Position numbers and translations under genes: made by a program. 32,000 bases of DNA from Candidatus Iainarchaeum sp. (GTDB lineage: Archaea; Iainarchaeota; Iainarchaeia; Iainarchaeales; JACQJH01): assembly GCA_016205145.1 (NCBI GenBank), contig JACQJH010000001.1, positions 480,001 to 512,000 of the forward strand. Reading direction: 5' to 3'. Positions 1 to 25,709 of the stretch are shown here, one piece after another; position 1 is the stretch's first letter; every line of letters starts with the position of its first letter. A model generated the notes under the pieces. It saw only the letters and a list, made by a program, of their open reading frames with translations. It was not told the origin of the DNA and searched no databases.

Positions 1-157
1 GAGGCTGAAAAACGGCAAGGCGTTTGTGCGCGCCGGCGCAGGCATTGTCTTCGATTCGGTGCCGGAAAAGGAATTCGATGAAACCGGGCGCAAGGCGCAG
101 GCCTGCCTGAATGCAATCGAAAGCGCGAACAAAAAAGCCGGGGCGGCGGGAAAATGA
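1..157 (+). CDS. trpE: anthranilate synthase component I, C-terminal fragment (N-terminus lies upstream of window)
   Basis: Frame 2 reads RLKNGKAFVRAGAGIVFDSVPEKEFDETGRKAQACLNAIESANKKAGAAGK*, matching the conserved TrpE C-terminus (AGAGIV.DS.PE.E..ET..K). Stop TGA 155-157 overlaps the next ATG. trpG/D/C/B/A follow. Confidence 0.8.
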   Translation, partial: RLKNGKAFVRAGAGIVFDSVPEKEFDETGRKAQACLNAIESANKKAGAAGK

Positions 158-534
158 CTGCAATTATTAACCTGTCTTTTGATGAAGCTATGGCAGTTTA
201 TGAGGAAGTCATGCTTGCAACGGATTCGAAACCGGCTGTCAGGATTTCCGGCACTTTGGAGCACATCCTGCTTTCATGCGAGAATTCGTTTAACGGCGAA
301 AATGATGCCTTGTTTTTCAAGGCGGCTTTTTTGCTAAAGGAAATAATTTCAAAGCACCCTTTTATGGATGGAAACAAGCGCGGCGCTCTGGCCATAACCG
401 ATGCTTTTCTGAGCCAAAACGGACAATTTTTGGAGTTTGAAAGGCAGGATGTGGCATTTTTGGAAGAAATAGACTTCAAAAAACTGCGGGTTGGCACGAT
501 AAAAAAATTTTTGGAGAAAAAGGTGAAAGTCTAA
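154..534 (+). CDS. doc: Doc (death-on-curing) / Fic-fold toxin
   Basis: 126 aa with HPFMDGNKRGA, which fits the Fic/Doc signature H.F.(D/N)(A/G)NKR. Size and layout are Doc-like. ATG overlaps the trpE stop (ATGA). G+C is visibly lower than the flanks (by eye). Confidence 0.8.
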   Translation: MTAIINLSFDEAMAVYEEVMLATDSKPAVRISGTLEHILLSCENSFNGENDALFFKAAFLLKEIISKHPFMDGNKRGALAITDAFLSQNGQFLEFERQDVAFLEEIDFKKLRVGTIKKFLEKKVKV

Positions 535-668
535 TGGCTCGCCAAAACCTTGTAAATTTCAATGTTCCTTTTGACTACTTTGCGGGCAACTTTCCTGAAT
601 TTTTCGTCAGCCATATTAATATCTCTGCGATAAGTGCATTTAAACATTTGCAGGCGGCGGGAAAATGA
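534..668 (+). CDS. 44-aa bridge ORF (hypothetical); its 3' end duplicates the trpE 3' end
   Basis: ATG overlaps the doc stop (TAATG) and the stop overlaps the next ATG (ATGA). The terminal AAGK* is encoded by the 16-nt direct repeat. It is below the ORF-track size cut-off and no family was recognised. Confidence 0.25.
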   Translation: MARQNLVNFNVPFDYFAGNFPEFFVSHINISAISAFKHLQAAGK

Positions 669-1465: not shown

Positions 1466-2100
1466 GCAAAGGCAAAAGAGGAAAAGGCGCGCGAGGCAAG
1501 GGCATCAACGTTTTGTTCATCGACAACTTCGATTCTTTTACATACAATCTTGTGGACGAGTTTGCGAAACGCGGTTGCCGCGTGAAGGTTTTCCGCAACA
1601 ACATCGCCATCGCAAAAATCAAAAGCGAGGCGAAAAAGTTCAAGGCTCGGCTGATTGTCATTTCGCCCGGCCCCTCGACGCCGGAGCGCGCGGGCAATTC
1701 TATTGCGGTCATAAAAGAGTTTGCCGGAAAAATCCCGGTTTTCGGCGTTTGCCTTGGCCTGCAGGCAATGGTTGTTGCCTTCGGCGGAAAGGTTGCAAGG
1801 GCGCCTGAAACCGTGCACGGCAAGCCGTCTGACGTGGTGCATGACGGCAGAACCATTTTTGAAGGAATTACAAATCCTTTTTCGGCGGGAAGGTATCATT
1901 CCCTTTGCGCTGTCAAAGTGCCATCCTGCCTGCAGGTTTCGGCTTTGTCGGAGTCGAAAGTCGTCATGGCTTTGCGGCACGAAAAATCGGGGAAGACTTT
2001 CTGTGAGGGCGTTCAGTTCCATCCCGAAAGCATTTTAACGCAGGAAGGCGGAAAGATTATTGAAAACATAATTAAAATGGCAGAACGTGATGGCAGATGA
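1462..2100 (+). CDS. trpG: anthranilate synthase component II (glutamine amidotransferase)
   Basis: Motifs FIDNFDSFTYNL, GVCLGLQ (catalytic Cys), GRYHSL and GVQFHPES. There is a K/G/R-rich 17-aa N-terminal extension; an alternative TTG start lies at 1513. Confidence 0.9.
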   Translation: MSKGKRGKGARGKGINVLFIDNFDSFTYNLVDEFAKRGCRVKVFRNNIAIAKIKSEAKKFKARLIVISPGPSTPERAGNSIAVIKEFAGKIPVFGVCLGLQAMVVAFGGKVARAPETVHGKPSDVVHDGRTIFEGITNPFSAGRYHSLCAVKVPSCLQVSALSESKVVMALRHEKSGKTFCEGVQFHPESILTQEGGKIIENIIKMAERDGR

Positions 2101-3113
2101 TCCGTGACAGCCTTTCAAAACTGGTTGAGCGCAAAAGCCTTTCCGATGCGGAAATGCAGGTATGCGTTTCGGAAATGATGATGGGTGAAGCCACGCCGGG
2201 CCAGATAGGCGCGTTCCTCGCGGCAATGCGCATGAAACCTGAAAGTGCCGGGGAAGTCGCTTCCGCAATGATGGCGATGCGCAAATTCATGGTTCCGGTG
2301 AAACCCAAAACAACCGAACCGCTTTTGGACATTGTGGGCACGGGCGGCGATGCCGTGAAGACTTTCAATGTTTCGACGTGCGCGGCAATCATTGCAAGCG
2401 CTGCAGGCTGCAGGGTTGCAAAGCACGGCAACCGCTCTTTCACAAGCAAATGCGGCTCCGCGGATGTTTTGGAAGCTTTGGGCGTCAAGGTCGGCCTCGA
2501 TGCGGAAAAGTGCGCGGAAATGATTGACAGGATCGGAATAGCGTTCATGTTTGCCCCGACGCATCATCCTGCAATGAAGTTTGCCGGCCCTGTGCGCAAG
2601 GAAATCGGTTTCAGGACAATCTTCAACCTGCTCGGCCCGCTCACAAACCCGGCAATGGCGCAGACAATGGTTGTCGGCGTGTACGAAAAGGAACTGGTTG
2701 AAAAGACAGCCAATGTTTTGAAAACTGTCGGAGTGGAGCACGCGCTTGTATTGCACGGCCTGGACGGATTGGACGAGTTTTCGACTGTCGGGCAGACTTT
2801 TGTCGCCGAGCTTTCAGGCAAAAAGATTTCAACCAAGACTTTTTCGCCTAAGGATTTCGGCTTCAAAAAGGCGAAAGCGCAGGACATTGCCGGCGGTTCG
2901 GCTGAAGAGAATGCCAAAATAATTCTCGCAACCCTGAGCAACGAGGAGAAGGGAGCGAAGCTTGACATTGTCTTGTTGAATGCGGGCGCCGGCATTTTCG
3001 TGAACGGAAAGGTGAAAAGCGTGAAGGAAGGCGTTGCGGTGGCAAGGCAGGCAGTCGAATCGGGTGCTGCGCTGAAAAAGCTGGGGCAATTAAAGGAGTT
3101 GTCGAACAGATGA
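2097..3113 (+). CDS. trpD: anthranilate phosphoribosyltransferase
   Basis: Motifs GTGGD, KHGNRS and NLLGPLTNP. ATGA overlap with trpG. Confidence 0.92.
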   Translation: MIRDSLSKLVERKSLSDAEMQVCVSEMMMGEATPGQIGAFLAAMRMKPESAGEVASAMMAMRKFMVPVKPKTTEPLLDIVGTGGDAVKTFNVSTCAAIIASAAGCRVAKHGNRSFTSKCGSADVLEALGVKVGLDAEKCAEMIDRIGIAFMFAPTHHPAMKFAGPVRKEIGFRTIFNLLGPLTNPAMAQTMVVGVYEKELVEKTANVLKTVGVEHALVLHGLDGLDEFSTVGQTFVAELSGKKISTKTFSPKDFGFKKAKAQDIAGGSAEENAKIILATLSNEEKGAKLDIVLLNAGAGIFVNGKVKSVKEGVAVARQAVESGAALKKLGQLKELSNR

Positions 3114-3889
3114 CTTCCGTCAATTTTTTGGAAGGCATTGTTTCGGCTAAAAAGCGCGAGCTTTGCCTGAAAAAGGAGAAGCTTCCGTTCGAGCGCATGA
3201 AGAAAGCCCTCAATCCTGCGGAAAAGGATTTTAAGGCCGCGATCGAGGGCAAGCAGAAAATCTCCCTTGTCGCGGAAATCAAGATGGCGTCACCTTCGGC
3301 GGGAACGCTTTTGCAGGGCGCATCCCCCGTAGAGATTGCGGCGCTTTACGCAAAATACGCCGACGCGGTTTCATTTGTTTCTGACAAATCTTATTTCAAG
3401 GGCAACATCGCGGATTTGCCGAAAGTCTCATCGGTTTCCGGCCTGCCAGTGCTGATGAAGGACTTCATAATAGACGAGTACCAGATTCTGGAAGCGCGCT
3501 TTTTCGAAGCGGATGCGGTTCTGCTGATTGCGTCCATGCTGAAAACCGAAACCCTTGCCGATTTCATTTCAACCGCTGAAAGGCTTTCAATGCATTGTGT
3601 TGTAGAGGTGCATTCGCGCTCCGAACTTGACAAGGCGCTTGAGGCCGGCGCGGAAATAATCGGCATCAACAACCGCAACCTCACGGACTTTTCAATCGAC
3701 ATGAACACGACAAAAAACCTTGCGCCGTTCGTGCCCAAGAAAAAGGTCGTCATTTCGGAATCCGGTTTTTCTTCAAGGCATGATGTTGAAAAGTTCCGCG
3801 GCGAAATCGACGCAATCCTTGCCGGAACCGCCATACTCAAGGCGCAGGACAGGGAAGCAATGCTGAAGGAGCTTTCAGGAAGGCAATGA
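3110..3889 (+). CDS. trpC: indole-3-glycerol phosphate synthase (monofunctional, no fused TrpF)
   Basis: Motifs SLVAEIKMASPSAG, KDFIIDEYQI and IGINNRNL. 259 aa. ATGA overlap with trpD. Confidence 0.9.
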   Translation: MTSVNFLEGIVSAKKRELCLKKEKLPFERMKKALNPAEKDFKAAIEGKQKISLVAEIKMASPSAGTLLQGASPVEIAALYAKYADAVSFVSDKSYFKGNIADLPKVSSVSGLPVLMKDFIIDEYQILEARFFEADAVLLIASMLKTETLADFISTAERLSMHCVVEVHSRSELDKALEAGAEIIGINNRNLTDFSIDMNTTKNLAPFVPKKKVVISESGFSSRHDVEKFRGEIDAILAGTAILKAQDREAMLKELSGRQ

Positions 3890-3940
3890 TTGGAGAATTC
3901 GCGGATGAAGAATTCGTGAATGAAGGATATTTGAAACTGG

Positions 3941-5137
3941 ATGTTGGTTTTGATGGCTGGGATCGGCAGGTTTGGAAAGTTCGGCGGCATTTTCGTGCCG
4001 GAAACCCTTATGCCGGCGTTGGAGGAATTGCAGGCGGCGTTTTCAAAGTATTCGAAGGACAAGGCTTTCAACCGCGAGCTTGATTATCTGCTTAAAGAAT
4101 ATGCTGGCAGGCCCACGCCGTTGACTTTCGCGGACAACCTTTCAAAAATCGTCGGGGCGAAAGTTTACCTGAAGCGCGAGGACCTGCTGCATACGGGCGC
4201 GCACAAGCTCAACAATGCTTTGGGGCAGGCCCTGCTTGCAAAGCGCATGAAAAAATCCAGGCTTATTGCGGAGACCGGCGCTGGCCAGCACGGCACGGCT
4301 GTCGCGACCGCGGGTGCAAAACTGAAATTCAAGACCGAAATTTTCATGGGCGAGGTTGACATTGAAAGGCAGAAGCCGAACGTTTTCCGGATGAAACTGC
4401 AGGGGGCAAAGGTTGTTCCGGTTTCAAGCGGGGGAAAAACCCTCAAGGACGCGATCAACGAGTGTTTGCGCGACTGGGTTGCAAGTTCCGGGTACACGCA
4501 TTACCTTCTCGGTTCGGCTTTGGGCCCGCATCCTTTTCCGGGCATGGTTGCGCATTTCCAGAGCGTCATTGGCAAGGAAGCCAGACGGCAGATTTTGAAA
4601 GCCGAGGGCAGGCTTCCGGATTCGGTTGTGGCGTGCGTGGGCGGCGGCTCGAACTCAATCGGCATTTTCAGGGAATTCCTGAAAGACAAAAAGGTCGGCC
4701 TGCTCGGAGTCGAGGCCGGCGGCCTGGGCATTGAAACCGGAAAGCATGCCGCGCGGTTTGCTGACAAAAAGCTGGGCAGGCCCGGCGTTATCCACGGCAC
4801 TTACACTTACGTTTTGCAGGACAAGTTCGGGCAGATTTACAACACGCATTCCGTGAGCGCGGGCCTGGATTACAGCGCTGTCGGCCCTGAACATTCGCTC
4901 TTGAAGGAAGCGGGCAGGGCAAAGTATTCTTACGCTACTGACCGGCAGGCATTGAATGCGTTCAAGGTCTTGTCGGAAGAAGAAGGAATCATTCCGGCTT
5001 TGGAAAGCGCGCACGCTGTCGCGTACCTGCTCAACCACAAAAACGAGTTCAAGGGCAAGACCGTTGTCTTGAATCTTTCCGGCCGCGGAGACAAGGACAT
5101 TTTCCACGCGGCAAAACAACTGGGTGAGGAAATTTGA
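3941..5137 (+). CDS. trpB: tryptophan synthase beta chain (TrpB1 type)
   Basis: Motifs [26 protein letters not shown] (PLP lysine), ETGAGQHG and GGGSN. An in-frame stop at 3932-3934 fixes the start at 3941 or later. Confidence 0.93.
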
Positions 5138-5961
5138 AAAAAACAGGGGAAACGCGCGAAACGCGCTTTGAAAAAAGGTTTTCTGAATTGCGCTCGGCCG
5201 GGCGGCATGCCTTTGTGCCGTTCGTGGTTTTGGGCGACCCGGATTTTGAAACCTCGCTTGAAATAATCAGGACGCTGATTGCTTCCGGCGCTGATGCCCT
5301 TGAATTGGGATTTGCCTTCTCCGACCCGATTGCCGACGGCCCCGTGATTCAGGAAGCCGACCAGCGAGCGCTCGCATCCGGCATGGACACAGACAGGAAT
5401 TTCGAACTGTTGAAAAAAATCCGTTTGCTTGACGCGGAAATTCCAATCTCGCTGCTAATCTATTCAAATCTTATCCTGCAATTCGGCATTGACCGGTTTT
5501 ACAAAAATTGCGCGGAATGCGGCGTTGACGCGGTTCTCGCGTCAGACGTTCCAGTCGAGGAATCGAAGCCGTTCCTTGCCTGCGCGAAAAAATTCGGAGT
5601 GCACCAGATTTTTTTGGTCACGCCGAATGAAACCGAATCGAGGCTGAAAAAAATCCTCGCGGTCTCAAACGGTTATGTTTACGTTGTAGCGGTTCTTGGC
5701 GTTACCGGCGCGCGCGAAAACGTGCAGTCCGTGGCAAAGGGCCTGCTGCAAAAACTGGCAAAAAAAACAAGGCTGCCACTGCTCGTGGGATTCGGCATTT
5801 CGAAGCCGGAGCATGTGCGGGAAATCATTGCGTCCGGCGCGGACGGCGCGATTGTCGGCAGCGCAATCGTCAGGAAAATCGGCGAAAACCTTTCTGACAG
5901 GGAAATGCTTTTGCGTGAACTTAAGAAATTCGCCTCCAGTCTGAAAAGTGCTTCGCTCTGA
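5134..5961 (+). CDS. trpA: tryptophan synthase alpha chain
   Basis: Motifs [18 protein letters not shown] and VGFGIS. TTG start overlaps the trpB stop (TTGA). Confidence 0.9.
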
Positions 5962-7488: not shown

Positions 7489-7668
7489 CGAAGAAAACCC
7501 TCTGCTTACAGAAACCCCCTTTATTCTTTTTATAATAATTGTTGACATGATTATTCAAATGTGAATTTAGGCTTTTGAATCCGCTTTGCCGGAGCCCCGC
7601 GCCGGGGAAAAAGCTTTTTATTACCTTTAACCCTTATTCTGTCAAAATTTTTTTAGTTTGGTGGTGGT

Positions 7669-8283
7669 TTGTTGAAAAAATCGTTTATTGCAGTTTCAAT
7701 TTTCTTCCTGATTTTCCTTTTGGGCTGTGCGCAGCAGGGCACCGGCATTGGCGGAGTTTCCCTGAAGGACTGCGGCAATGACGCGACCTGCTTCGACGCG
7801 GCTTCGCAGAAATGCGAGGCGGCGAAAGCAACGCTTTCACAGTCAACCGAACAGGGCTCCGTTCAAACCTATGCGGAGAGCAGGGGCAAGTCCGGCGGAA
7901 ACTGCGAATTTTATTCCAAGATAATCAAGTTTGACATTGCCACGGATGCCCCCGGGGTTTCGCCCGAATTTTCGGCCAAGGTGAATGCTCTTGTCAAGGG
8001 CCTTGAAGGCAAGGACATGGTATGCAGGGTTCCGGAGGACAAGGCAAAATCCCAGGTGCTGGACTTTGCCGAAAGCCAGGACCTTTTTGAAAAGTACTGC
8101 TCCGGTGCGCTGAAAGACGAGCTTTCAGCACTGCAGTCCAAGCTTGCGGATTTGGTGCAGCAGGAACTGCAGGCGCAGATTGCGGCAGCAGGCCCACAGT
8201 CCGGAACCGCTGACCCAACGGCTGAACAGCCCGCATATCCTGACTATGCTCCGCCGGTTGATGAAACGGGAAGCGCGCAATAA
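7669..8283 (+). CDS. secreted lipoprotein-like protein, unknown function
   Basis: N-terminal hydrophobic signal with lipobox-like FLLGC. Cys-containing globular part and a Q/A/P-rich tail. TTG start. Confidence 0.6.
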   Translation: MLKKSFIAVSIFFLIFLLGCAQQGTGIGGVSLKDCGNDATCFDAASQKCEAAKATLSQSTEQGSVQTYAESRGKSGGNCEFYSKIIKFDIATDAPGVSPEFSAKVNALVKGLEGKDMVCRVPEDKAKSQVLDFAESQDLFEKYCSGALKDELSALQSKLADLVQQELQAQIAAAGPQSGTADPTAEQPAYPDYAPPVDETGSAQ

Positions 8284-24140: not shown

Positions 24141-24324
24141 GCGGGGGTGGCGGAGTGGTCTAACGCGCCAGCCTGGAACTGCCCTTTCTTTTCTTTGAAA
24201 AAGAAAAGAAAGTGCAAGGTGCCCAAAGAAAAGAAAACGGGCCATTGCCCGGAAAAGGCGCTTTGCAAGGCACCAACAAGCTGGTTTCCGCAAGGAAGCG
24301 CGAGTTCGAATCTCGTCCCCCGCG
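24141..24324 (+). tRNA. tRNA-Ser(GGA) with a 100-nt intron
   Basis: Exons are nearly identical to tRNA-Ser(UGA). Anticodon stem CCAGC (24168-24172) / GCTGG (24280-24284), loop CTGGAA^A, variable arm TTTCCGCAAGGAAGC, discriminator G. Mature length 84 nt. Confidence 0.88.
24179..24278 (+). other. tRNA intron at the canonical 37/38 position with a good hBHBh' motif
   Basis: The 5' bulge is AA^C. Helix h' is TGCC (24180-24183) with GGCA (24269-24272). The central helix is CTGG with CCAA (3 of 4 bp). The 3' bulge is CA^A. A perfect 13-bp hairpin lies at 24184-24212. Confidence 0.8.
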
Positions 24325-24443: not shown

Positions 24444-24526
24444 GCGGGGTTACCCAAGCGGTTAACGGGAGCGGGTTGAGGGCCCGTAGCTTAGTGCTTA
24501 CAGCGGTTCGAATCCGCTACCCCGCA
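24444..24526 (+). tRNA. tRNA-Leu(GAG)
   Basis: 83-nt class II cloverleaf: acceptor GCGGGGT/ACCCCGC, D arm CCC/GGG, anticodon stem GCGGG/CCCGT, loop TTGAGGG, long variable arm, T arm AGCGG-TTCGAAT-CCGCT, discriminator A. No intron and no trailer module. Confidence 0.9.
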
Positions 24527-24587: not shown

Positions 24588-25709
24588 ATGATTAAGACAG
24601 AATCGCAGCTTTCAAACTACTTTTCTGGGTTCGAGGAACAGATAGGCAAGCACAACGCCCAGTTAATAATTGCTTTTGCCGAAAAGCACAGGGCGACCGT
24701 TACAGAGCCGAGCCTTCAACGAATTAGCACGGTTTGCATTCGTTTGAAGTCTATTGCCAAGTGGCTGAACAAGCCTCTGGACAGGCTAACCGAAGCCGAC
24801 CTAATCAGGCTTAACACGGCAATGCGCGACAAGGGCATGAAGTCAAGCGCGGACTACCGGCAATGCCTAAAGCACTTTTTCAAGCTGACCGACAAAAAGC
24901 GTTTCTATGACCTCATTGAATCAGAATACCTGCGAAACGTCAAGAAAAAGGGCACAGACCAGCTTGTGGACGCGGAAGAATTTTGGAGTCAAAGCCAATG
25001 CAACGATTATCTCATGGAAAGCCTTAACCGTTCCAAAAGGCACGGTGCGTTTGCTGCAATTTGGTTGTCGTGTGGCATGAGGCCGCATGAAATAATGGGT
25101 TTGCATAAGGCAGACCTTGAATTGGATGGACAAAGCCTTGTAGTCAAGGTTCGGAGCGGCAAAACCGGCAAAAGAACAATCGTGTTAAACGGCAACGAAG
25201 GAACAGGGGTTTTTCGATATGTTGAGCCTTACCTTGACACTTTGAAAGACAACGAAAAGCTATTTTCCCTGACTTACAAGGCCGTTGAAAAATGCCACCA
25301 CAACATTTGTGAAAAAATAGGCTTGCCGGAAGGCAAAAGCCGAAAGCTTTACATGAGCAGAAAACGGACTTTGACACGCTGGTATAACGAGTTTGGGCTT
25401 GTCAAGGCCGCCAAAATGTGCGGCCACGTGCAAGGCGGTCGGGCAATGAAACACTATTTGGACATGACCGACGAGGAATTGAAGGAAAACAAGCGGCCGG
25501 AACGCCTTGAAAACAAGGTTTGCCCCAATCCAAATTGCAAGCAAGTCAACGAACCGCTTAGCGGCCTATGCTCCAAATGCAGCAGCCCGCTGGACAGGGA
25601 ACGCTTTGACGAGCTGATAAAAAGCAGCTTGGACGAACTGGTTGAAACAAAAATTGCGCTGGCAATCGTCAAACTCCAAAATGAAGCCCTGAAACTCAAA
25701 ACCCAATAG
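24588..25709 (+). CDS. tyrosine recombinase / integrase with C-terminal zinc ribbon
   Basis: Catalytic-region motifs GMRPHEIMGL (Arg), KTGKRTIVL and GHVQGGRAMKHY (His..Arg..Tyr). CPNPNC...CSKC ribbon near the C-terminus. Confidence 0.85.
   Translation: MIKTESQLSNYFSGFEEQIGKHNAQLIIAFAEKHRATVTEPSLQRISTVCIRLKSIAKWLNKPLDRLTEADLIRLNTAMRDKGMKSSADYRQCLKHFFKLTDKKRFYDLIESEYLRNVKKKGTDQLVDAEEFWSQSQCNDYLMESLNRSKRHGAFAAIWLSCGMRPHEIMGLHKADLELDGQSLVVKVRSGKTGKRTIVLNGNEGTGVFRYVEPYLDTLKDNEKLFSLTYKAVEKCHHNICEKIGLPEGKSRKLYMSRKRTLTRWYNEFGLVKAAKMCGHVQGGRAMKHYLDMTDEELKENKRPERLENKVCPNPNCKQVNEPLSGLCSKCSSPLDRERFDELIKSSLDELVETKIALAIVKLQNEALKLKTQ

Follow-up and report, generated by a model that had tools for sequence, protein, structure and literature searches.

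A Doc-family gene and a convergent 27-codon gene at a duplicated stop/start junction in the trp operon of a DPANN archaeon

A 32,000-nucleotide stretch of a Candidatus Iainarchaeum sp. genome (contig JACQJH010000001.1, positions 480,001 to 512,000 of the forward strand; hereafter the window) opens on the trp operon, where a short segment encoding a protein of the Doc/Fic family lies between trpE and trpG. A preliminary description of this DNA treated the segment as a cassette carrying only a toxin gene. We find a second gene on its opposite strand, a conserved 27-codon open reading frame (ORF) termed as27. The arrangement is most readily understood, with a confidence slightly better than even, as a compact two-gene Doc module inside the trp operon of a DPANN archaeon, in which expression of a Doc kinase would be linked to the operon and as27 would provide the antidote. 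The structural findings are solid, whereas the functional reading, namely an antitoxin role for as27 and coupling to starvation, would be close to an even bet.

The doc gene (154–534, + strand) encodes a protein of 126 aa, and its earlier assignment to the Doc/Fic group is borne out by profile comparisons. The protein matches the Pfam family Fic (PF02661) with E = 2.6e-9 (38.2 bits, cutoff 24), and a PF02661 assignment is precomputed for all 11 members of the subfamily described below. Against the NCBIfam model TIGR01550 (DOC_P1) it scores 38.4 bits (E = 1.2e-9), just under the trusted cutoff of 38.65. A profile search of the Protein Data Bank (PDB) yielded the Doc-family entry 9vzc at 2.9e-9 and P1 Doc (3k33) at 6e-5. 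The Doc-type motif HxFx(D/N)(A/G)NKR is present as H68-P-F-M-D-G-N-K-R76, in which Lys replaces the second Gly of the Fic motif. The H, F, D, G, N, K, and R of this motif are invariant in an alignment of six sequences; the motif generally takes the form HPF[ML]DGNKR, and the homologue at locus L095 reads HTFMDGNKR. An AlphaFold2 (AF2) model of moderate confidence (pLDDT 65) has the P1 Doc structures 3dd7, 3kh2, and 3k33 as its best Foldseek matches (probability 1.00, TM 0.62–0.66, E ~0.06). Judged by sequence, the protein is a member of the Doc family.

No Phd-type antitoxin precedes this gene, as had been noted earlier, and none is apparent elsewhere in the window. When all frames of the window were searched by tblastn with P1 Phd and E. 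coli YefM as queries, the best E value was ~0.6. A canonical type II Phd/YefM-Doc operon was rejected because the upstream gene is trpE and no frame of the window resembles Phd or YefM. Relatives of this Doc protein were not found on viral contigs.

The upstream gene, trpE (anthranilate synthase component I; Pfam Chorismate_bind), is represented in the window by its last 51 codons (1–157, + strand); the complete gene of 559 aa is seen in locus L001 at 947–2626. The doc ATG (154–156) overlaps the trpE stop codon TGA (155–157), so that doc is positioned for translational coupling to trpE, as the preliminary description proposed. This overlap falls within a 16-nt direct repeat, GGCGGCGGGAAAATGA. 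The left copy (142–157, +) holds the last trpE codons (AAGK*), a G-rich Shine–Dalgarno (SD)-like stretch, and the doc ATG. The right copy (653–668, +) contains the stop codon of orf44, a 44-codon frame on the plus strand (534–668), and gives the following gene, orf266 (665–1465, +), its SD-like stretch and its ATG at 665. Through the two copies, doc and the next gene share the same initiation region. The order trpE-ATGA-doc-TAATG-orf44-ATGA-orf266-ATGA-trpG is as originally described, and stop/start overlaps of the ATGA or TAATG type link all successive frames from trpE to trpC.

The 16-mer occurs at exactly these two places in 32 kb, with no further match at ≤2 mismatches. Shuffled sequences give an expectation of 0.08 matches, and two or more matches appeared in 0 of 100 shuffles. 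The unique segment between the copies (158–652) is 495 bp long and has a G+C content of 0.408, compared with a window mean of 0.496 (standard deviation 0.055 for 495-nt windows). The "visibly lower" G+C reported for it is therefore correct in direction, but the value sits near the 10th percentile of equal-sized windows and is low rather than extreme. An identical locus is present in three Logan assemblies, and the contig listed for the Doc cluster is 613 kb long.

Related genomes reveal the junction in its uninterrupted form. The nearest TrpE relatives, drawn from contigs representing one genome per species, belong to DPANN archaea labelled Iainarchaeum, Woesearchaeota, or Nanoarchaeota and are at most 64% identical. 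Of 77 related archaeal loci with both trpE and trpG, 73 have a gap of ≤100 nt between the two genes, and two have a gap of more than 250 nt that is filled by unrelated genes. None of the 77 loci encodes this Doc. A typical native junction, such as GGGCGAGGCAAAATGAATG, has a G-rich SD-like stretch followed by AAAATGA, with the trpG ATG overlapping the trpE stop. Because the relatives' junctions share this pattern, the repeat in the window can be recognized as a duplicated native-type junction, in agreement with what was first suggested. The doc-bearing segment is a discrete interruption of an otherwise contiguous trpE–trpG junction, and the ~1.3 kb interposed there consists of doc, the small region that follows it, and orf266. 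A cassette-free allele would take the form trpE-GGCGGCGGGAAAATGA-orf266, and a circular junction the form ...CATTTGCA-repeat-CTGCAATT....

An initial search for Doc homologues yielded only four other clusters. The bounds of the subfamily were then set by a profile search of 5.8 billion proteins, in which 11 clusters score 167–222 bits before generic Doc proteins follow at 78 bits. Three of these clusters lie in trp operons, six lie directly after pyrD, and two are standalone, which places nine of the 11 in an anabolic operon. The trp operons have three arrangements: trpE-doc-as27-orf266-trpG in the window, trpE-doc-as27-trpG in L084, and orf266-like-doc-as27-trpG in L085. The Doc homologues in the relatives' trp operons have 64–67% identity. 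In the pyr operons of L086, L095, and L096 the order is pyrD-doc-as27-pyrK; L097 has a 230-aa ORF between as27 and pyrK, L098 has a HAD-like gene after as27, and the contig of L099 ends after pyrD-doc-as27. Most embedded copies are located exactly between two subunit genes of a heteromeric enzyme, and the start codon of doc overlaps the stop codon of the gene before it. The standalone doc genes (L087 and L088/L089) lie behind AT-rich regions.

Two of these loci have individual peculiarities. In L088 (1095–1115; also in L089), the standalone doc is beside a uppS-like gene, GGAGCTGCGCATG precedes its ATG, and TTTAAA is found 25 nt upstream. This GGAGCTGCGCATG element matches the pyrD/doc junction of L097 at 12 of 13 positions, and no pyrD is nearby. 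The match suggests that the L088 copy was relocated from a pyr operon with one repeat copy still attached and acquired its own promoter. In L095 (5950–6001), ATA has replaced the doc ATG within the left repeat, GTG and TTG codons in frame with doc occur just upstream, and the gene caller picked an internal ATG (112 aa). This gene may use an alternative start or may be at an early stage of decay.

The claim that the segment carries doc alone does not survive comparison of these loci. In the first four other loci recovered, the ~130 nt located 3′ of doc hold a minus-strand ORF of exactly 27 codons whose stop codon overlaps that of doc. In the window, this ORF is as27 (531–614, − strand; MADEKFRKVARKVVKRNIEIYKVLASH), which is convergent with doc and likewise overlaps its stop codon. 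The 11 loci provide ten full-length copies, each exactly 27 codons long with invariant start and stop, and one partial copy. Their consensus sequence, MVRK....L.K.(I/V)KDNLKVYKELAKH, has N17 and L24 as invariant residues. For close pairs, the ratio of nonsynonymous to synonymous differences per site (pN/pS) is ~0.13–0.25 in the as27 frame and ~0.7–1.1 in the antisense frame, which is that of orf44. In a Nei–Gojobori comparison of L095 and L096, the values for the as27 frame are 12.0/14.7 synonymous and 7.0/63.3 nonsynonymous, whereas those for the antisense frame are 3.0/13.3 and 16.0/64.7. Pairwise differences among as27 copies are distributed over codon positions 1, 2, and 3 as 356, 273, and 522.

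The surroundings of as27 also have the appearance of a gene. All nine loci that include the region have a TTTAWA box 22–25 nt ahead of the as27 ATG, a distance that would be expected of leaderless transcription in archaea. In the window, the box is a TATA-like TTTAAA (639–644, −) located 24 nt upstream of the ATG, with the geometry of a leaderless archaeal promoter; in the trp promoter region of the host, CTTTAAATA precedes the trpE ATG by ~30 nt. On the as27 strand, oligo-T runs are found past the as27 stop codon, 10–50 nt inside doc, and the convergent coding regions overlap by 4–11 nt. In L099, an independent gene caller annotated as27 as a 27-aa gene. Purifying selection, invariant length, the TTTAWA box, the T-runs, and this gene call together argue that as27 is a real gene. 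The protein of orf44 is not conserved, its frame is free of purifying selection, L086 has no ATG at the doc stop codon in this frame, and the length of the plus-frame ORF varies among loci. By these comparisons, orf44 is the antisense shadow of as27.

The plus-strand frame itself could have a use that is independent of its amino acid sequence, which is unconserved. In seven of the eight operon-embedded loci, it remains open from the end of doc to a stop codon that overlaps or abuts the next ATG. The as27 gene also avoids TTA, CTA, and TCA, which read as stop codons in the plus frame: These make up 0 of 32 Leu and Ser codons (P = 0.006 in a naive calculation that ignores shared ancestry). Such a pattern is suggestive of a frame kept open as a bridge on which ribosomes could pass from the end of doc to the following start codon.

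Direct repeats that take in the doc ATG and the ATG of the next gene occur in six (the window, L086, L095, L096, L097, and L098) of the seven embedded loci in which both junctions can be seen, with 12–18 nt of exact and 24–31 nt of imperfect match and a spacing of 510–516 nt. The exact repeats are 15 nt in L086 and 18 nt in L096, both spaced by 510 nt. Those of L095 extend over 13 nt exactly and 24 nt at 83% (spacing 513 nt), whereas L097 has 17 nt exact and 31 nt at 84%, and L098 has 12 nt exact and 25 nt at 84% (both spaced by 516 nt). In the pyr loci, the left repeat codes for the C-terminal tail of PyrD, ...VGAAHG, which reads VGVAHK in L095. The boundaries of the repeat vary by locus: Its end follows ATGG in L086 and ATGGGTGA in L096. 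Within any one genome the two repeat cores are the same, but genomes differ from one another at synonymous positions of the PyrD tail, where the codon versions GGT GCA GCG, GGC GCT GCG, GGG GCA GCG, and GGT GTT GCT are found. The repeats of L095 differ from those of L086 by three substitutions that are common to both L095 copies. Identity within each genome would reflect either repeated excision and re-insertion or local relocation, or else homogenization by conversion or slippage. The existence of three trp-operon arrangements suggests local relocation. The junction repeats themselves would be footprints of insertion or relocation.

The divergence of Doc proteins parallels that of the enzymes encoded beside them. 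Doc and PyrD identities are 85% and 90% between L086 and L096, 74% and 82% between L086 and L095, 76% and 72% between L097 and L098, and 62% and 61% between L086 and L097. For the window and L084, the Doc proteins are 64% identical, compared with 62% for TrpE and 65% for TrpG. This agreement points to long vertical co-inheritance rather than recent independent acquisition, and the sequences indicate that the cassette is an old resident passed on mostly by vertical descent. The earlier picture of a cassette dropped into the junction thus stands as far as a discrete interruption is concerned, but the event was not simply a recent one, since Doc divergence matches that of TrpE/TrpG and PyrD/PyrK.

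The as27 product is the likely partner of Doc and a candidate antitoxin. A peptide of this size is a plausible Doc inhibitor because a 22-residue portion of Salmonella Phd is sufficient: Phd(52-73) binds Doc with picomolar affinity, fully inhibits phosphorylation of EF-Tu, and rescues growth (PMC9207808). The hot spots of Phd are F56, I59, M60, H63, L67, and L70 (PMC9207808), and PDB entry 3dd7 contains Doc with a 23-residue Phd peptide. In an alignment anchored at the C-terminus, these Phd residues fall on as27 positions 10 (I/L, with A in the window), 13 (I/V/M), 14 (I/V/F), 17 (N), 21 (Y/F), and 24 (L), respectively. Both peptides end three residues past the gatekeeper Leu (...LRELADK versus ...YKELAKH). 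The last 22 residues of as27 thus appear to mimic the hot-spot spacing of the Phd helix as well as its C-terminal end. This resemblance, which is one of sequence, is a lead and not proof.

If as27 is an antitoxin, then the module could work as follows. Doc would be a kinase that inactivates the elongation factor aEF1-alpha, by analogy with the action of P1 Doc on EF-Tu. Doc synthesis would require transcription and translation of the host operon and would scale with them. The as27 peptide, expressed independently, would neutralize Doc as a minimal equivalent of the C-terminal neutralization helix of Phd; as27 might also act as an antisense RNA or through interference by convergent transcription. 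Strong induction of the operon, caused by tryptophan or pyrimidine limitation, would then tip the balance between Doc and as27 toward growth arrest.

Several observations weigh against this proposal. Searches of Pfam, PADLOC, and PDB profiles gave no homology of as27 to Phd, to known families, or to solved chains. The score of the anchored as27/Phd alignment exceeds that of shuffled sequences by z ~2 (p ~0.03), which is only weakly significant. The charge of as27 is +4 to +6, whereas Phd neutralization peptides are acidic (−3/−4), and neither a compensating charge change in Doc nor charge complementarity between Doc and as27 was found. The junctions of L084 and L085 have no clear repeats and hold only one-sided fragments like the 16-mer of the window, which means that conserved synteny without repeats does occur in these two loci; the pyr-operon loci, which retain repeats, contradict this pattern. 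Long co-divergence with the host enzymes suits a domesticated function as well as it suits an addiction module. The link to starvation through regulation of the trp operon in this organism is conjecture.

Among other explanations, the one that fares best, although we consider it unlikely, is that the ~0.5-kb unit is a selfish mobile addiction cassette. Insertion at stop/start overlaps, with duplication of at least 12–18 nt of the target, would be carried out in trans by a recombinase or a repair pathway. Lodging in essential coupled operons would secure expression and make imprecise deletion lethal, with no role in sensing starvation. Junction-derived repeats whose boundaries differ between L086 and L096, the three trp-operon arrangements, the remnant of a pyrD-type junction retained by the standalone L088, the low G+C of the cassette, and a tyrosine recombinase gene elsewhere in the window fit such mobility. 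The cassette has neither a recombinase nor terminal inverted repeats of its own, and the repeats vary in length, whereas a transposase would produce duplications of constant length. Co-divergence with the host enzymes and the existence of only 11 clusters in 5.8 billion proteins imply that mobility is rare, and nine of the 11 copies are confined to two operon types.

Known kinds of small mobile unit do not match this cassette. A transposon or insertion sequence was rejected: The 495 bp hold doc and as27 only, terminal inverted repeats consistent across loci are absent from the cassette ends, and the exact repeat length ranges over 12–18 nt. An integron gene cassette was likewise rejected because the right end has no palindrome other than the TTTAAA box and the flanking genes are trpE, orf266, and trpG. 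Like integron cassettes and casposons, the segment is a small discrete unit that uses outside expression signals for one of its genes and is flanked by short direct repeats, here of 12–18 nt; casposons produce target duplications of 14–15 bp. In contrast to them, it has no attC-like palindrome, terminal inverted repeats, or linked integrase or casposase. Its repeats are variable in length and located at the initiation regions of stop/start overlaps, and its inheritance is mostly vertical.

A second alternative, which we regard as rather improbable, extends the two-gene Doc module into a brake on growth during starvation. Doc would ride on the translation of trp or pyr genes, and read-through of the operon would progressively shut the as27 promoter, so that limitation of a precursor would lead to phosphorylation of the elongation factor and slower growth. 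Small-genome archaea may have no other link from precursor supply to translation. The duplicated junction and the open bridge frame would preserve termination–reinitiation coupling of the genes for enzyme subunits. Homogenization, for example by short-patch conversion or by repeated excision and re-insertion, would keep the repeats identical.

It is improbable that as27 functions chiefly as RNA, with a short convergent transcript serving as a type I-like antisense repressor or acting by transcriptional interference and the peptide having a secondary or other role. The geometry invites this idea, since the genes are convergent, their coding regions overlap by several nucleotides, and the T-runs inside doc could be terminators; in addition, the peptide is basic, unlike the acidic Phd helix. 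In type I loci with a 3′-overlapping antisense RNA (such as bsrG/SR4), the convergent antagonist also overlaps the 3′ end of the toxin message. SR7 of Bacillus (SR7/SR7P) is reportedly a dual-function antisense RNA that also encodes a small peptide, as the as27 transcript would. However, the as27 peptide is under clear purifying selection with many synonymous changes, a pattern indicative of a functional peptide; its length, start, and stop are the same in all ten full-length copies, and N17 and L24 never vary. The toxins of type I systems are small membrane peptides rather than Doc kinases, and the loci described here are archaeal. A type I toxin–antitoxin system was rejected on these grounds: Convergent overlap is present, yet the toxin is a 126-aa Fic-fold enzyme and the as27 coding sequence is constrained.

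Domestication of Doc to regulate the flanking enzymes or their pathway, for example by phosphorylating TrpE/TrpG, PyrD/PyrK, or a pathway-specific factor, is very improbable. The placement of the cassette exactly between the subunit genes of a heteromeric enzyme, in each of two unrelated pathways, together with its long co-divergence with these enzymes, is compatible with this idea. Nothing suggests that a single kinase recognizes two unrelated enzyme pairs, however, and copies L087 and L088 stand alone. Moreover, a conserved and tightly linked partner gene is typical of toxin control, and the gene downstream is neither pyrK nor trpG in L097, L098, and the window (where it is orf266). Finally, although short G-rich SD-plus-ATGA junctions do recur in the trp operon, the notion that the repeat and the small ORF arose by chance in ordinary intergenic or overlapping sequence can be set aside given the shuffling result, the same architecture with 510–516 nt spacing in five further loci, and the signature of selection on as27.

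In its probable workings, the two-gene Doc module is closest to a type II Doc system. It shares with Phd-Doc of phage P1 and Salmonella the toxin family, the Fic fold, the HxFx(D/N)(A/G)NKR motif, the length of ~126 aa, and a small, tightly linked partner gene. It differs in having no Phd/YefM DNA-binding domain and no upstream co-transcribed antitoxin. Instead, the partner is a basic 27-aa product encoded downstream on the opposite strand with its own promoter-like element, and the toxin gene, in an archaeal host, lacks its own promoter and is placed so that its translation can be coupled to that of a biosynthetic gene. The antidote would thus be cut down to a neutralization helix and strand-flipped, and the toxin wired into anabolic operons. 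A further likeness is to the class I Fic pair VbhA/VbhT, in which a separate gene encodes a small helical peptide, as is proposed here for blocking a Fic-fold active site. In contrast to VbhA, whose gene lies upstream and on the same strand, as27 has no (S/T)xxxE(G/N) inhibitory motif, and Doc is a kinase rather than an AMP transferase.

Two further sets of sequences were observed around doc-like genes. In L086, five codons at the start of doc (MAKIK) and five at the start of as27 (MAKSK), at 764–778 and 1207–1221, form a 15-nt inverted pair that is 80% complementary; this pairing is not consistent in other loci. In L091 (1099–1600) and L093 (2242–2720), distant archaeal Fic/Doc-like genes (33–43% identity in the motif region) are followed by same-strand helical ORFs of 33–36 aa. 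These small ORFs hint that archaeal Doc-like proteins may commonly have a mini-partner encoded downstream.

The gene that follows the cassette, orf266, is a lineage-specific ORFan of normal, host-like G+C content. It has no match in Pfam or NCBIfam, and searches of 5.8 billion and 1.8 billion proteins recovered no homologue save a fragment of orf266 itself. The only relative detected is a 30%-identical ORF upstream of doc in L085 (3–842). The AF2 model of orf266 (pLDDT 44) was too poor for a structure search. The 230-aa ORF located between the cassette and pyrK in L097 (994–1686) has no detectable relation to orf266. The first 6–7 nt of both extra ORFs are those of the displaced downstream gene (ATGAGCA in the window and ATGACT in L097). 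There is no evidence that orf266 is an antitoxin or a recombinase.

The trpG gene (anthranilate synthase component II; 1462–2100, +) encodes a 14-residue N-terminal extension rich in K, G, and R (MSKGKRGKGARGKG; 1462–1503, +). This extension is missing from ~75 relatives, whose TrpG starts at the position equivalent to residue 15; TrpG of L015 has a Lys-rich N-terminal extension that is longer still. The remaining genes of the operon, trpD, trpC, trpB, and trpA, occupy 2097–5961 (+). Interruptions by other genes are also seen in the trp operons of relatives. Several Iainarchaeota-like genomes (L006, L007, L016, and L030) have a HAD-like hydrolase between trpG and trpD, and L011 has a Nudix-like gene between trpE and trpG (2166–2672). 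L071, which is labelled Neomarinimicrobiota bacterium, has a 145-aa ORF between trpE and trpG (7603–8040).

Farther along the window, a tyrosine recombinase gene (Pfam Phage_integrase, 2.8e-6; 24588–25709, +) is found directly downstream of tRNA-Leu (24444–24526). Patches with a G+C content of 0.35–0.38 occur past this gene at 26.0–27.0 kb and 30.5–32 kb. The recombinase and these patches may belong to an integrated element, although no attachment (att) repeat for the region was found within the window. At 24141–24324 (+), a match to the Rfam tRNA model extends over 184 nt (43 bits) and was not called by ARAGORN; it may be an intron-containing archaeal tRNA.

A survey of the literature on Doc in DPANN archaea, operon-embedded toxins, and convergent peptide antitoxins gave no description of a matching arrangement. 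The Doc toxin family is known; what is new is the architecture, a Doc system coupled translationally to anabolic genes. Toxin–antitoxin modules are usually self-contained, autoregulated operons, whereas this toxin borrows the promoter and start context of genes for amino acid or nucleotide biosynthesis. The example also demonstrates that annotation pipelines can overlook a partner gene and call its antisense shadow instead. If the proposed functions are correct, then as27 would rank as the smallest natural antagonist of Doc, a counterpart in nature to the synthetic Phd peptides that serve as Doc inhibitors. The junction duplications, identical within genomes and diverging between them, would pose a mechanistic puzzle. 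The locus would also offer a testable example of a growth-arrest enzyme wired directly to the expression of metabolic operons in archaea.

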